The position numbers and the translations under genes are program-made. Positions 6,365 to 9,488 of a stretch of 64,000 nucleotides of DNA are shown here, piece by piece. Under the pieces are notes generated by a model. It was given only the letters and a program-made list of their open reading frames with translations. It made no database searches and was not told the origin of the DNA. Within the stretch, counting starts at the first letter, position 1, and each line of letters begins with the position of its first letter. Where the stretch lies: contig JAXJBF010000135.1 in the NCBI GenBank assembly GCA_036303105.1, positions 192-64,191 on the forward strand, in the 5' to 3' direction. The stretch is from Peptococcaceae bacterium. GTDB taxonomy: Bacteria; Bacillota; Peptococcia; Peptococcales; Peptococcaceae.

Positions 6365-6402
6365 AAAAACCGATGAACTGTAGTTGTTTTCTCGTTCATC
6401 GG
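6365..6402 (-). terminator. Intrinsic terminator ending the sirtuin operon
   Basis: CCGATGAAC/GTTCATCGG stem followed on the minus strand by TTTTT. Confidence 0.6.
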
Positions 6403-6410
6403 CTTTGTAT

Positions 6411-6593
6411 TTATGGATTTGGCTTACTGACAACTTTAACTTGAAAATTTTGCACATCAATCAAAGTTTCTTGTTTGCATTTCGGACAGTAAATCGGAAA
6501 GTTCTTTATTTTTGTATCTTCCCGTACTTTTTCGTGCGTTTTTCTCCCGCAGACAGGACAGAGTATCCATTCTGTTTTTGTACCCATAAACAT
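6411..6593 (-). CDS. Cysteine-rich KTR domain protein
   Basis: CPVCGRKTHEKV..YCPKCKQETLIDV, two CxxC pairs. Start may be 6587. Confidence 0.8.
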   Translation of the reverse strand: MFMGTKTEWILCPVCGRKTHEKVREDTKIKNFPIYCPKCKQETLIDVQNFQVKVVSKPNP

Positions 6594-6605
6594 ATATCCC
6601 TCTTA

Positions 6606-7472
6606 TTATAAATCGTCCAATACTGCGGCAATATCGCTGTTGATACAAACAGATTGCTTTTCGATTTCCTGAGGACAAAACGCCTCGCCGTAATTGATAC
6701 AAGCGTAAGTGGCATTCGGGTTTTTAGCTGTCATCTTCCAGAAAGGATATTTAATAATAACCGGCGTATTAGCGCCTACGCCAAGCTCCAGAAACAGAAT
6801 ATGCGAATTCTTGTGGCGGCAGATAAAATCATCGTAACGACTGGAAGCAGCATACCAGCCTTTATCCTGAACAAAGGTCATATCGCTGCGTAGGTTCATT
6901 GTCATCGGTGCTCCGCATACCGGACATTTAGGGATTAACTCTGTGGGGATTTTCATATCCTTTTGTTGGGCGACCATTTGACGGACAGATTTTTCATTGT
7001 CATAGGTTTTTTGATGGCAGGGCTTAGAGCATTGCCAAAGTCCGTAATCCCCCTGCGTATAGAACAGCCGCTTTTTATCAAAACCGGCAAGCTGAAACTG
7101 ATGATCCACATTGGTGGTAAGCACAAAATAATCCTTATCTTTTATCAGCATCAACAAGTCGGCATAGGGCTTTCCAACACCGACATCATAGCGATTTACA
7201 AAAATATGCCGCGACCACCACGCCCAATATTCCTCCAAGGTGTCATAGGGATAAAAACCGCCGGAATAAATATCCCGGATTCCGTATTTCTTATAGAAGT
7301 CTGAAAAATATCGTTCAAACCGTTCGCCATCATAGGTAAATCCTGCCGAAGTGGACATTCCCGCACCAGCGCCGACTACAATAGCGTCGGCCGTTTCAAT
7401 CTCATTTTTCAGTTTTTTAATTTGCCCCGAGTAATTCTCGATAGATTTTGTAGTCAATATCCTTGAAAACAT
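6606..7472 (-). CDS. Sirtuin, class-M-like (SirTM-type, putative protein ADP-ribosyltransferase)
   Basis: GAGAGMSTSAGF, TTNVDHQF, and FYTQGDYG where canonical sirtuins carry the catalytic His. Cys4 zinc ribbon. Overlaps the macrodomain gene by 56 nt. Confidence 0.85.
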   Translation of the reverse strand: MFSRILTTKSIENYSGQIKKLKNEIETADAIVVGAGAGMSTSAGFTYDGERFERYFSDFYKKYGIRDIYSGGFYPYDTLEEYWAWWSRHIFVNRYDVGVGKPYADLLMLIKDKDYFVLTTNVDHQFQLAGFDKKRLFYTQGDYGLWQCSKPCHQKTYDNEKSVRQMVAQQKDMKIPTELIPKCPVCGAPMTMNLRSDMTFVQDKGWYAASSRYDDFICRHKNSHILFLELGVGANTPVIIKYPFWKMTAKNPNATYACINYGEAFCPQEIEKQSVCINSDIAAVLDDL

Positions 7473-8196
7473 TAAAAATCACCTCAATTTCGCTGTGTGT
7501 TTGGGATTTGAAATCTTTTACGGTCTGAACAGCAATTTCTGCCGCCTTATCATTTGGGAAATGGAACTCACCCGTAGAAATACAGCAGAATGCAATACTC
7601 TTTACCCCGTTTTGCTCCGCCAGCTCCAAGCAGGAGCGATAGCAGGACGCAAGTGCATTTTTATCGCTCTTTGTAACCTGTTCCCCAATAATCGGACCGA
7701 CTGTGTGAATTACATACCGGCAGGGCAGATTAAAAGCAGGGGTAATTTTTGCTTTGCCCGTTTCTTCTTCGTGTCCCTGCTTTCTCATCAATTCTGCACA
7801 AGCCAGACGAAGCTGCACACCTGCAAAAGTGTGAATGGCATTGTCAATGCAGCCGTGATTCGGGTAAAAGCAGCCGAGCATTTGGCTGTTCGCCGCATTC
7901 ACAATAGCGCCGCACGCCAGCGTAGTAATATCGCCCTGCCAAAGATACAATCCCTGTTGGATCGCTTGTAAATCGGTAAGTCTCGTAACTCTTTTTCTAT
8001 GTATCTCCTCTTGCAAATAGGCATTCTGTACATCTAAAAATGCGTCATTGACAGGCAAGGGCATACGGATATTGAAAAGAGCGCGCAACAGGACTTTTTG
8101 TTCCTGCCCACTCGGTGGAATTTCGATTTTGGAATACTTTGGCTGCTCTTTTAACAGCTCCTGTATAAGAAATAATCTTCTTTCTATTTGTGTCAT
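7417..8196 (-). CDS. Macrodomain protein (protein-ADP-ribose hydrolase type)
   Basis: [37 protein letters not shown] macro motifs. Confidence 0.85.
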   Translation of the reverse strand: [259 protein letters not shown]

Positions 8197-8197
8197 A

Positions 8198-8821
8198 TTA
8201 TCCTCTCTTTACGATCGCACGCATAGGACAGATTTCAAAACAGTTTCCGCAGTGCAGACAGTGATTCTGATTGATTACAACGGGCTTCACACTAATGTCA
8301 ATACATTTTTGCGGGCATTTAGAGTAACATAATTTGCAACCGATACATTTATCGGTTACATAATAACCCTCTTGAACTTCTTCTCTGCCGCCAAAAGCAA
8401 AATTGGCACGTTCGATTGGTTTTTTAGAAAGGTCGAACCATTCTCCGGTTCCCTCGTACAGTTGAAAAACTCGAATTGCGCTGCGAGATTCTTCCGTGGG
8501 ATAAATCTCATACATATAGGTGTTTTTATCAAACAGAGCTTTGGTATACTGCGTGTTCAGCTCCCGTACCTTACCACGCAGAGAAACTGCTGCGCTGGTC
8601 ATGGTATTTTCACCTTTTATGCCAGTCAGGGAAATATAACCTTGCTTTTTCAACCGTTTATAAAAGCTCTTTCCCTGTGCTGTGAGAAAGTATAAGCTGC
8701 TCTCATCGCTATCCATTATATCGATGGCACAAGTAACCGGCAGCCCTTGTTCATCCATCGTAGCAACAACAGTCGTATGAATTTCACGTGCGATGAATCG
8801 CAGGTAATCTTTTGCTTCCAT
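8198..8821 (-). CDS. PNPOx-like FMN-binding split-barrel domain fused to 2x[4Fe-4S] ferredoxin domain
   Basis: N-terminal PNPOx-like region. C-terminal CIGCKLCYSKCP and CLHCGNCFEICP motifs. Confidence 0.75.
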   Translation of the reverse strand: MEAKDYLRFIAREIHTTVVATMDEQGLPVTCAIDIMDSDESSLYFLTAQGKSFYKRLKKQGYISLTGIKGENTMTSAAVSLRGKVRELNTQYTKALFDKNTYMYEIYPTEESRSAIRVFQLYEGTGEWFDLSKKPIERANFAFGGREEVQEGYYVTDKCIGCKLCYSKCPQKCIDISVKPVVINQNHCLHCGNCFEICPMRAIVKRG

Positions 8822-8833
8822 AAAAGATTCCTC

Positions 8834-9284
8834 CTATTTGATACCCTTTAGAATGGGTGTAAGTTTTTTATAAATCAACATGGTAAAGACACTGATCGCA
8901 AGCCCTTTGAGCAAATTGAACGGGAAAGCGTTGTACAGCACTACATCGAGTTTGGTTTTGATAAAGGGGATAAATACGCCAAACGAGGCAATTACCTGAT
9001 CCAGCGGCATAAACTGTTCAAACATCGATAAAAGAACAAAGTAATTCATTATAGCAGACATAATCCCCTATTACACCGATTGTTGGGCCGAATGCAAATG
9101 CGCCAATCAGTGCTGGAAAATCCGACAAATCCATCTTTGCAAAGGACGGAGACAGTGGAACAGGACATTCAATAAAAGCAAGAACAAAAGATACAGCGGA
9201 AAGCATAGCCGTCATAGCCAGTGTTCGTGCATTGAAAATATTGGTTCTTTTTTGGGATATTGATTTAGATTGCGTGAACATCAT
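8834..9284 (-). pseudogene. ribU: ECF S-component, riboflavin type (RibU-like), split by a frameshift near 9018-9061
   Basis: ORFs 9018..9284 and 8834..9061 are consecutive parts of one S-component (DLSDFPALIGAFAFGP.. then ..NAFPFNLLKGLAISV). Directly downstream of the FMN riboswitch. Confidence 0.65.
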
Positions 9285-9323
9285 TTCATTCTCCTAACGA
9301 GATATGAATGGAATTAAGAGAAT

Positions 9324-9488
9324 CCCCGCAGATACCATCTGCTGTTACAGTTGGTCTGCGGGGAACCCTTTTCATATCTTCTTTCATCCGGACTTTACCG
9401 TCGGTAACGGAATCACACCGTTTCGGCCGCTTTGCGGTTCGCAGACTTTACTGCCGGTCAGGAATTTCACCATGCCCCGAAGATAAAT
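9324..9488 (-). promoter_or_regulatory. FMN riboswitch (RFN element) plus downstream hairpin
   Basis: Minus strand: UCUUCGGGGCAUGGUGAAAUUCCUGACCGGCAGUAAAGUCUGCGAACC...GGUGUGAUUCCGUUACCGACGGUAAAGUCCGGAUGAAAGAAGAU. Followed by CCCCGCAGA..UCUGCGGGG (9364-9324). Confidence 0.85.

Follow-up and report, generated by a model that had tools for sequence, protein, structure and literature searches.

Class-M sirtuins (SirTM) are found together with macrodomain genes either as independent pairs or within extended operons, and their carriers include Clostridiaceae and Lachnospiraceae (Rack 2015, PMC4518038). They and their zinc-dependent macrodomain partners (Zn-Macro) have been linked to oxidative stress and to the flavin oxidoreductases OYE and LLM (PMC4518038, PMC11490716, PMC12440151). 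GcvH-L is the only known SirTM substrate, and the targets and role of the 'lone pairs' or 'minimal operons' are said to remain elusive (Ariza 2024, PMC11490716). Here we describe a SirTM gene and an overlapping Zn-Macro gene in a stretch of 64,000 nucleotides from a Peptococcaceae bacterium (contig JAXJBF010000135.1, positions 192 to 64,191), to which we refer as the window. The module is of a known kind, and its form lacking GcvH-L has already been published. An earlier note on this DNA had pointed to a writer/eraser pair without a known substrate, which is true, and not new (PMC4518038, PMC11490716).

Overall, we read the locus, with a probability of about 0.68, as a clostridial lone-pair SirTM/Zn-Macro module that forms the 3' end of a redox-stress flavoprotein operon and is carried on a decayed element. 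SirTM would act as the writer, a nicotinamide adenine dinucleotide (NAD)-dependent mono-ADP-ribosyltransferase acting on a specific protein, and Zn-Macro as the eraser, a zinc-dependent ADP-ribosyl hydrolase that would remove the modification. By analogy with the staphylococcal system, the protein modified by SirTM most likely bears a redox cofactor, and ADP-ribosylation would gate or protect it under oxidative or electrophile stress. This redox-stress response would be placed under an Rrf2-type regulator here and under an HxlR-type regulator elsewhere. One transcript, from about 10650 to 6365, would comprise the genes for an NAD(P)H-binding protein and a small PNPOx-like protein, a riboswitch with its terminator, a ribU pseudogene, and the genes for a PNPOx-ferredoxin fusion (PNPOx-Fd), Zn-Macro, SirTM and a KTR protein. 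We infer co-transcription, stress role and target alike.

Writer, eraser and the operon around them

The features of the locus, from the divergent regulator gene to the terminator, are:

10786..11223, plus strand: Rrf2-family regulator, HypR/RirA-like (Pfam Rrf2 114.6 bits)
10737-10765, plus strand: Rrf2 promoter, divergent from the promoter at 10680..10652 (11 of 12 consensus matches)
10652..10680, minus strand: sigma-70-like promoter TTTACA-17-TATAAT with extended TG, upstream of the NAD_binding_10 gene (11 of 12 consensus matches)
9969..10598, minus strand: NAD(P)H-binding NmrA-like protein (NAD_binding_10), first gene of the operon (Pfam 46.7 bits)
9503..9904, minus strand: small PNPOx-like flavin mononucleotide (FMN)-binding split-barrel protein, PNPOx2 (Pfam PNPOx_N 58.9 bits)
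9372..9488, minus strand: FMN riboswitch aptamer (RFN element), full length (RF00050 110.6 bits)
9290..9378, minus strand: riboswitch expression platform, terminator-type hairpin (-38.5 kcal/mol, z -6.3)
8834..9284, minus strand: energy-coupling factor (ECF) S-component pseudogene, RibU-like (two open reading frames (ORFs), 173-bp deletion)
8198..8821, minus strand: PNPOx-Fd fusion, 207 aa (PNPOx_N 31.0 bits, cut-off 28.1; two Fer4 stretches)
7417..8196, minus strand: Zn-macrodomain, 259 aa (Macro 140.5 bits)
6606..7472, minus strand: SirTM, class-M sirtuin, 288 aa (5A3A match, E 1.3e-81)
6411..6593, minus strand: Cys_rich_KTR zinc-ribbon protein, 60 aa (PF14205 93.7 bits, gathering threshold 25.5)
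6365..6406, minus strand: intrinsic terminator, 13-bp stem, 15-nt loop, U5 (-17.2 kcal/mol, z -7.05)

The sirtuin matches the solved SirTM of S. pyogenes (SpySirTM, 5A3A) with an E value of 1.3e-81 and barely scored against Pfam SIR2 (17.5 bits). The residues that Rack et al. 2015 (PMC4518038) give as class-defining or catalytic are all present. When the motifs TTNVDHQF (residues 119-126) and FYTQGDYG (137-144) are aligned, Gln140 occupies the position of the catalytic His and corresponds to Q137 of SpySirTM, so that QG takes the place of the invariant HG. Likewise, N121 (in TTNVD) and R195 (in NLRSD) are the counterparts of N118 and R192, and GVGANTP (231-237) fits the pattern GVGx[NT]TP; N121, R195 and GVGANTP are invariant in the SirTM alignment. 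The earlier note had taken the Gln in place of the catalytic His as the SirTM hallmark, and the match of Q140, N121, R195 and GVGANTP with SpySirTM bears this out. Judging from these conserved catalytic residues and an identity of ~50% to SpySirTM, the protein is predicted to be an NAD-dependent protein mono-ADP-ribosyltransferase.

The sirtuin gene is linked to Zn-Macro, which lies directly upstream and overlaps it by 56 nt. Zn-Macro enzymes are defined by NAAN, a Cx4HxC loop and Dx3H (Ariza et al. 2024, PMC11490716). In the window protein, NAAN (VNAANS) and Dx3H (DNAIH) are present, and the Cx4HxC zinc loop, C-FYPN-H-G-C, aligned with GCMQANHDCIDNIIHT of SauMacro, replaces the Gly-rich catalytic loop. 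The protein scores 369 bits against the protein-ADP-ribose hydrolase equivalog NF003163 (cut-off 272) and matches the SirTM-linked macrodomain of S. aureus (5KIV) with an E value of 4.6e-78. At the level of sequence, the N-terminal extension of 5KIV, which in this class is made up of three helices, has its counterpart in residues 6-80. A Pfam sweep of the 64-kb window, made with the called ORFs of 60 aa or more apart from a 1678-aa one at 25119-30155 and a few that were short or looked antisense, revealed no GCV_H, BPL_LplA_LipB, Oxidored_FMN (OYE) or Bac_luciferase (LLM) domain. The absence of GcvH-L and LplA2 had been claimed before, as had the Macro and Cys_rich_KTR domains that scored 140.5 and 93.7 bits. 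There is also no GcvH-L cluster among the 80 species neighbourhoods introduced below.

From the FMN riboswitch through the terminator, all features that had been assigned to the minus strand were found at their noted coordinates, and the ORF coordinates reproduce exactly the gaps noted between the genes (12 nt, 1 nt, a 56-nt overlap and 12 nt). A consensus scan of the minus strand between 9500 and 6100 yielded only weak terminator-like hairpins within coding sequence, in keeping with the claim that there is no internal terminator, and no sigma-70-like promoter. The only convincing promoters that the scan gave in 6100-11400 are the divergent pair at 10680..10652 (minus) and 10737..10765 (plus). 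The idea that the riboswitch heads the operon probably has to be given up: the aptamer starts 14 nt past the stop codon of the co-directional PNPOx2 gene, no hairpin lies between them, and the sole good promoter is the one at 10680..10652. Inspected by eye, the last 60 nt of the PNPOx2 gene hold only a weak TCTAAT without a matching -35 element. The long operon has its probable transcript start at the promoter 10652..10680, and because the genes are packed so tightly, co-transcription would be the simplest reading. The Rrf2 protein is probably a redox or Fe-S sensing regulator of this operon.

PNPOx-Fd, encoded 1 nt upstream of Zn-Macro, belongs to a family with 4471 matches at E <= 1e-5, whose annotation goes no further than '4Fe-4S binding protein' or 'PNPOx family protein'. 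Its eight cluster Cys residues are all invariant. Among PDB sequences, 2HHZ comes closest to the N-terminal domain; for the C-terminal part the matches are clostridial 2x[4Fe-4S] ferredoxins. The AlphaFold2 model is of low confidence (mean predicted local distance difference test score 67.8, linker 133-149 below 50) and serves for the split-barrel fold only, the placement of the FMN domain relative to the Fe-S domain being not trustworthy. The nearest folds are split-barrel flavin proteins, with NimA/NimC-type nitroimidazole reductase, general stress protein 26 and F420 reductase relatives. PNPOx-Fd is most likely a low-potential flavin/iron-sulfur oxidoreductase.

Neighbourhoods of related SirTM genes

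To place the operon among its relatives we compared three samples, whose loci are given as L numbers. A look-up for entries identical to the window SirTM came back empty, and the samples were gathered through homologs. The species sample holds 80 SirTM loci from 80 species-level genomes of various Clostridia, with SirTM proteins that are 67-84% identical; the alignment-based genome scan gave close clostridial relatives only, with no Staphylococcus or Streptococcus loci among them. The metagenome sample comprises 80 loci, many of them on near-duplicate contigs, so that its counts are not independent. A third sample consists of a dozen contigs that carry close homologs.

In 76 of 78 species loci the gene immediately upstream of SirTM is Macro, and an overlap of the two genes (-56 or -50 nt) is kept in 56 loci. 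PNPOx-Fd, the commonest third gene of the clostridial modules, directly precedes Macro in 42 of 73, with gaps that are mostly 1-4 nt or overlaps. Less frequent neighbours in the species sample are NAD_binding_10 (16/59), the small PNPOx-like gene (8/59), Rrf2 (6/51) and an ECF-S gene (1/59). Unbiased clustering of neighbouring ORFs brought up a divergently transcribed HxlR-family regulator in ~35 species, a protein of ~263 aa without Pfam or NCBIfam match, encoded immediately before PNPOx-Fd or Macro in 17 species, and a double SnoaL protein in 7 species. Of 62 metagenome loci, 51 have one or more redox neighbours and 34 have HxlR; KTR and ECF-S genes occur in none of them. The typical layout is an HxlR or Rrf2 regulator, one to three redox/flavin genes and Macro-SirTM at the 3' end. 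The synteny proposed in the earlier note is recurrent as far as PNPOx-Fd/Macro/SirTM is concerned; the upstream riboswitch (3/80 species and 0/80 metagenome loci) and KTR (1/71 and 0/62) are not part of it.

Two side observations concern these neighbours. The 263-aa family has an HxxGHDxH-like stretch and occurs in L053 (C5 cluster), L010, L011, L013 and L014, as well as in many metagenome loci at about -1552 from SirTM. A gene for nicotinate phosphoribosyltransferase (NAPRTase) follows SirTM on the same strand in L005-7 (10890-12332; 4 nt downstream in L005), L012, L016 and L026, and a functional link between this NAD salvage enzyme and the NAD-consuming SirTM is plausible.

The converse test starts from PNPOx-Fd: six of six sampled homologs (71-88% identical) are followed by SirTM, with Macro between them in five. 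On the SirTM tree (76 tips), PNPOx-Fd adjacency takes at least 22 state changes as compared with 24.2 for shuffled states, which indicates that the adjacency was formed or lost many times. The pairwise distances of Macro and SirTM correlate with a rho of 0.65, those of PNPOx-Fd with either SirTM or Macro only weakly (rho 0.34-0.36). From the state changes and the distance correlations it becomes clear that Macro-SirTM is the stable core and PNPOx-Fd a loosely coupled, often exchanged, yet recurrent accessory. In L002, the PNPOx-Fd and Macro alleles are swapped relative to SirTM (48% and 63% identical versus 89%).

By synteny PNPOx-Fd is the best genomic candidate for a partner or target of SirTM. 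A stricter proposal, namely that PNPOx-Fd, and elsewhere the alternative upstream flavoproteins, would be the direct SirTM substrate and the counterpart of lipoyl-GcvH-L, with Zn-Macro as the eraser, appears to us rather unlikely. It would agree with the adjacency in 42 of 73 species loci at gaps of 1-4 nt, with the six of six loci in the converse test, with an association that formed repeatedly across the SirTM tree, and with the Macro-less variants described below, in which the gene next upstream of SirTM encodes a PNPOx-Fd paralog or a nitroreductase; moreover, the published target is encoded in the same operon as its writer (PMC11490716). However, many Macro-SirTM loci are devoid of any PNPOx-Fd, the distance correlation with SirTM is weak, and a shared regulon or the role of an accessory oxidoreductase, comparable to OYE and LLM in Staphylococcus, explains the co-location equally well. 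We are similarly doubtful about the wider generalization that the clostridial pairs would be regulatory 3' modules of HxlR/Rrf2 redox operons whose substrates would be the co-encoded flavoproteins, above all PNPOx-Fd, and to which the FMN riboswitch would add flavin control in this genome.

SirTM genes without a macrodomain are exceptions, because the class is defined as macrodomain-linked. One of them lies in the window itself: a second, full-length paralog (SirTM2) at 41317-42222 on the minus strand, 65% identical to the first, keeps QG, TTNVDHQF, NLRSD and GVGYNTP and has no adjacent macrodomain. Its neighbourhood extends over 40276-45467, with AzlC and AzlD after SirTM2 and the following genes on the other side:

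42323-42901: nitroreductase, upstream of SirTM2
42903-43622: 3keto-disac_hyd-like protein
43538-44572: radical-SAM/SPASM protein
45099-45467, plus strand: HxlR, divergent

Among the metagenome loci syntenic with SirTM2, Macro is present in L094, absent in L095 and located downstream in L129, L140 and L149. In the SirTM2-syntenic loci L105, L114, L120, L155 and L156 a divergent PNPOx-Fd paralog lies directly upstream of SirTM. As a separate observation, L176 carries at 5629-6588 a divergent SirTM (45% identical, QG kept) directly after PNPOx-Fd, again without a macrodomain.

The FMN riboswitch, the KTR gene and the mobile element

The match to Rfam RF00050 reaches 110.6 bits against a gathering threshold of 66.2 (E 7e-25) and spans model positions 1-138, that is the full model, so that the aptamer call in the earlier note is well founded. 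In the expression platform, the hairpin CCCCGCAGA...TCTGCGGGG is followed by a U-containing tract, and the same hairpin is present in L002 and L090. What remains of ribU are two overlapping ORFs, 9284..9018 (88 aa, ECF_trnsprt 47.4 bits) and 9061..8834 (75 aa). The sister contig L001, which is 98-99% identical and has an intact 207-aa gene at 8016-8639, served as the reference for the lesion: L001 positions 8232-8404 (173 bp) are absent between window positions 9069 and 9068. The 'frameshifted RibU-like gene' is indeed broken, but by an internal deletion of 173 bp relative to L001 and not by a simple frameshift. Its assignment as RibU relies on the riboswitch and a weak, marginal Pfam match to ECF-ribofla_trS, and an NCBIfam search gave the ECF-S component no specific name (it is not called RibU).

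All loci were scanned with a covariance model that combined the aptamers of this study with the Rfam consensus, and 15 of them were cross-checked with Rfam. The riboswitch occurs in seven distinct contexts (the element shared by the window, L001 and L088; L002-4; L055; L084; L051; L090/91; L176), which amount to 3 of 80 loci in the species sample and 0 of 80 in the metagenome sample. In all seven contexts a small PNPOx-like gene ends 13-100 nt before it, and an ECF-S gene, whole or as a recognisable remnant, comes next. The state of ribU and of the aptamer is as follows:

L001, L088, L055, L176: ribU intact, aptamer 105-110 bits (Rfam)
Window: ribU damaged or lost, aptamer 110.6 bits (Rfam)
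L002: ribU damaged or lost, aptamer 110.2 bits (Rfam)
L090: ribU damaged or lost, aptamer 84 bits, substitutions and an insertion at invariant core positions
L084: ribU damaged or lost, aptamer 74.9 bits, P1 helix unmatched
L051: ribU damaged or lost, aptamer below threshold, mutated to a relic that at its 3' end runs up to the Macro start codon

L084 and L051 had been candidates for riboswitches placed directly before PNPOx-Fd or Macro, and were rejected when Rfam and the raw sequence revealed decayed relics. A decay series of this kind is what one would expect of an aptamer whose selected target is ribU and which drifts once that gene is lost; the riboswitch belongs to ribU. In L042, L078, L081 and L175, PNPOx2 directly precedes PNPOx-Fd-Macro-SirTM without a riboswitch, which suggests that the riboswitch-ribU cassette was inserted into a pre-existing operon. 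We propose that this insertion took place mid-operon in one set of lineages and that the selected function of the cassette would be riboflavin uptake. L176 is the cleanest natural example of the order riboswitch-ribU-PNPOx-Fd-SirTM: a riboswitch of 105.8 bits and an intact ECF-S gene are followed, after the same 12-nt gap, by PNPOx-Fd and then SirTM without Macro. As L176 keeps this order with a SirTM that is only 45% identical, the riboswitch-ribU-PNPOx-Fd block must be old.

In the window, the riboswitch would function as an internal FMN-dependent terminator within the long transcript. Because the ribU remnant is followed after 12 nt by PNPOx-Fd, without detectable promoter or terminator, FMN-dependent termination would also cut the expression of PNPOx-Fd, Macro, SirTM and KTR. 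With ribU dead, these four are the only intact genes 3' of the riboswitch terminator. Flavin-dependent attenuation of the ADP-ribosylation module, as read from this arrangement, is therefore likely in this genome as a consequence of the position of the ribU cassette; it would be a by-product and not a conserved design.

The earlier note had instead pointed to flavin-riboswitch control over the ADP-ribosylation module; as a selected design this is improbable, since the riboswitch occurs in 3/80 and 0/80 loci and always with ribU or its remnant. In its full form, this alternative would hold that the riboswitch is a selected regulator of writer and eraser, that flavin status would control their expression, and that KTR or the flavo-FeS protein would be the substrate. 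We regard it as improbable, and more so than PNPOx-Fd being the substrate. It can draw on the intact aptamer (110.6 bits) in front of a dead ribU, on the terminator-less 12-nt junction into PNPOx-Fd, on the flavin-related nature of the downstream genes, on L002 and L090, which retain aptamer and terminator before PNPOx-Fd after independent ribU deletions, and on L176, where order and 12-nt gap recur with a distant SirTM, so that the block is old. It has to contend with the rarity of the riboswitch and its constant company of ribU or a remnant, with L055, where an opposite-strand ORF of 677 aa separates ribU from the PNPOx-Fd/Macro/SirTM triad, with the decay of the aptamer after ribU loss (core mutations in L090, no P1 in L084, a relic in L051), and with the scarcity of KTR (1/71 and 0/62 loci, frameshifted in L088, deleted in L001). 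As a side observation, the space between riboswitch and PNPOx-Fd in L002-4, the site of the deleted ribU, contains a 71-aa hydrophobic ORF with its own ribosome-binding site (L002 8187-8402).

The second feature that we set apart from the module is the KTR gene, and its position is best seen from the mobile element. Window positions 4876-12252 are 98-99% identical to L001 and 70-88% identical to L088, and the chromosomal flanks differ. In L088 the full set is found: TnpV, the cargo from Rrf2 to SirTM, a NikA-like gene, a 450-aa relaxase, ParB and a large serine recombinase with DUF4368. The corresponding features in the window are:

4876..12252: DNA shared with L001 and L088, read as a decayed Tn4451-like mobilisable element with the whole operon as cargo
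11481-11903: TnpV, intact (158.5 bits)
5404-5706: NikA-like, intact (Pfam sweep)
5166-5423: relaxase fragment, 85 aa
4954-5169: DUF4368 recombinase fragment

Having lost most of its relaxase and recombinase, the window element is probably immobile. TnpV was found in 13 of the collected loci, which fits a scattered and shuffled distribution of the cassette. The KTR gene lies between cargo and mobilisation genes. Intact copies exist in the window and in L021 (Massiliimalia massiliensis), L088/L089 have a frameshifted one, and L001, whose homology to the window ends exactly at the SirTM stop codon, has none. Even a permissive tblastn search (word size 2, E up to 10) detected it in only 1 of 71 species loci (L021). 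KTR-domain genes have been reported in Tn916-family elements (PMC9137128). On account of its position, its decay in sister elements and this occurrence in the Tn916 family, we take KTR to be probably backbone or junction baggage of the mobile element and not a part of the ADP-ribosylation module. As a conserved partner, KTR, which the earlier note had named a candidate substrate, was rejected in view of the 1/71 and 0/62 loci, the frameshifts in L088/L089 and the deletion in L001. Both riboswitch and KTR are thus incidental, as side effects of the ribU cassette and of the mobile-element junction.

The element calls for two further alternatives. Firstly, the locus might be an accidental mosaic of mobile-element recombination, with separate transcription units that would be functionally unconnected. 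The element is decayed, with deletions in ribU, relaxase and recombinase, the homology of L001 stops precisely at the end of SirTM, and in L002 the PNPOx-Fd and Macro alleles are swapped relative to SirTM, all of which would agree with a mosaic. Yet gaps of 12, 1, -56 and 12 nt leave no space for promoters or terminators, and the order PNPOx-Fd/Macro/SirTM is found in dozens of species outside the element, with the Macro-SirTM overlap conserved. We therefore consider a mosaic very unlikely. Secondly, an ADP-ribosyltransferase and its macrodomain antagonist in overlapping genes, frequently associated with mobile elements (TnpV in 13 loci), could recall a toxin-antitoxin or anti-phage module like DarT/DarG or the SIR2-based systems. 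Against such a module, PADLOC gave no match for SirTM, Macro or KTR, the pair is consistently placed within HxlR- or Rrf2-linked redox operons, its homology to the characterised, non-toxic enzymes of S. pyogenes and S. aureus is close, and Macro-less SirTM paralogs, one of them in this window, would be unexpected for a toxin. Lacking PADLOC support, this least probable of the alternatives was set aside as hardly credible.

We return to the reading of a lone-pair module at the end of a redox-stress operon, against which several points have to be weighed. As to the transcript, a consensus promoter scan could miss a non-canonical promoter before the riboswitch or within the ribU remnant. As to the partner, the weak distance correlation of PNPOx-Fd has been mentioned, and ~40% of the species loci have no PNPOx-Fd beside Macro-SirTM, so that PNPOx-Fd cannot be an obligatory cis-encoded target. 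As to the target itself, a minimal-operon Zn-Macro proved unable to remove the modification from GcvH-L (Ariza 2024, PMC11490716), from which it follows that the minimal-operon target is a different one. Finally, an above-threshold aptamer and the terminator still precede PNPOx-Fd in the window, L002 and L090 after independent losses of ribU. The riboswitch could thus have been kept to control the downstream genes, with some selection for flavin control of PNPOx-Fd.

Elsewhere in the window, a second ECF S-component gene (55698-56258) lies beside a type III pantothenate kinase gene (54884-55738) at 54884-56258 on the minus strand; it probably encodes a pantothenate-family transporter unrelated to the SirTM locus. 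The 1678-aa ORF at 25119-30155 is on the minus strand, and several of its neighbours encode proteins with Cu_amine_oxidN1 (copper amine oxidase N-terminal-like) domains, at 22500-23492, 37359-37901 and 61475-62434. A HicB-family antitoxin-like gene (22013-22471, minus strand) and a gene for a Schlafen/AlbA_2 protein with HATPase_c_4 (56595-58424, minus strand) may be related to defence or mobile elements. In related contigs, a cyclic di-GMP-I riboswitch near a GAF/HisKA gene (L002 3219-3294, minus strand) and a T-box leader just downstream of SirTM (L036 of Hydrogeniiclostridium mannosilyticum, 11309-11525, minus strand) are probably unrelated to SirTM.

Comparison with known systems

In the searchable literature we found no paper that mentions SirTM together with ferredoxin, riboswitch, HxlR, nitroreductase or pyridoxamine, and neither Rack 2015 (PMC4518038) nor Ariza 2024 (PMC11490716) mentions ferredoxin or pyridoxamine. 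Within the same literature, three aspects appear to be undescribed: the recurrent neighbourhood of PNPOx-Fd or other flavoproteins with HxlR/Rrf2, the carriage on a mobilisable element, and the macrodomain-less SirTM paralogs, which stretch the class definition.

The Tn4451/Tn4453-family mobilisable transposons of clostridia carry TnpV, a Mob relaxase and the large serine recombinase TnpX. The element described here resembles them in having TnpV at one end and, in L088, a NikA-like gene, a relaxase, ParB and a DUF4368 serine recombinase at the other. It differs in that its cargo is a redox/ADP-ribosylation operon and not an antibiotic resistance gene, and in that relaxase and recombinase are mostly lost in the window. 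ADP-ribosylation modules thus move on mobilisable elements in gut Clostridia.

Vitreschak et al. reportedly described in 2002 an FMN riboswitch (RFN element) controlling the riboflavin ECF S component RibU/YpaA. Here, too, an ECF S-component gene is directly preceded by a full-length aptamer and its terminator-type platform. Unlike in that system, the transporter gene of the window is a pseudogene, and the cassette stands mid-operon, 14 nt after PNPOx2 and 12 nt before PNPOx-Fd.

With the extended operons of Staphylococcus and Streptococcus the locus shares the writer and eraser families (5A3A, E 1e-81; 5KIV, E 5e-78), the association with flavin-dependent oxidoreductases and, as we infer, a relation to oxidative stress. 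Those operons comprise GcvH-L, Zn-Macro, SirTM, LplA2, OYE and LLM, whereas the window is devoid of the lipoyl carrier, the lipoate ligase, OYE and LLM. Its flavoproteins are instead PNPOx split-barrel proteins with or without a ferredoxin domain, next to an NmrA-like protein; its regulators are of the Rrf2 and HxlR types; and it is carried on a mobile element. If PNPOx-Fd were the substrate, reversible ADP-ribosylation would gate or protect a flavin/Fe-S electron carrier, much as lipoyl-GcvH-L is protected in Staphylococcus.

The closest relative is the lone pair of Clostridiaceae, Lachnospiraceae, Enterococcus and Treponema. In both, the Zn-Macro and SirTM genes are adjacent and overlap, the writer shows GVGx[NT]TP, the N/Q/R trio and QG where HG would stand, the eraser has Cx4HxC, NAAN and Dx3H, and GcvH-L and LplA2 are absent. 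In contrast to the published lone pair, the pair of the window and those of most relatives sampled end a redox/flavin operon beside HxlR or Rrf2. The members beyond the lone pair are PNPOx-Fd (in ~58% of species), NAD_binding_10, the small PNPOx, nitroreductase, SnoaL and the 263-aa protein. The clostridial 'lone pair' is thereby recast as part of a recurrent redox-gene neighbourhood, which yields a short list of candidate targets and partners together with candidate inducing conditions, namely thiol, electrophile, oxidative and Fe-S stress.

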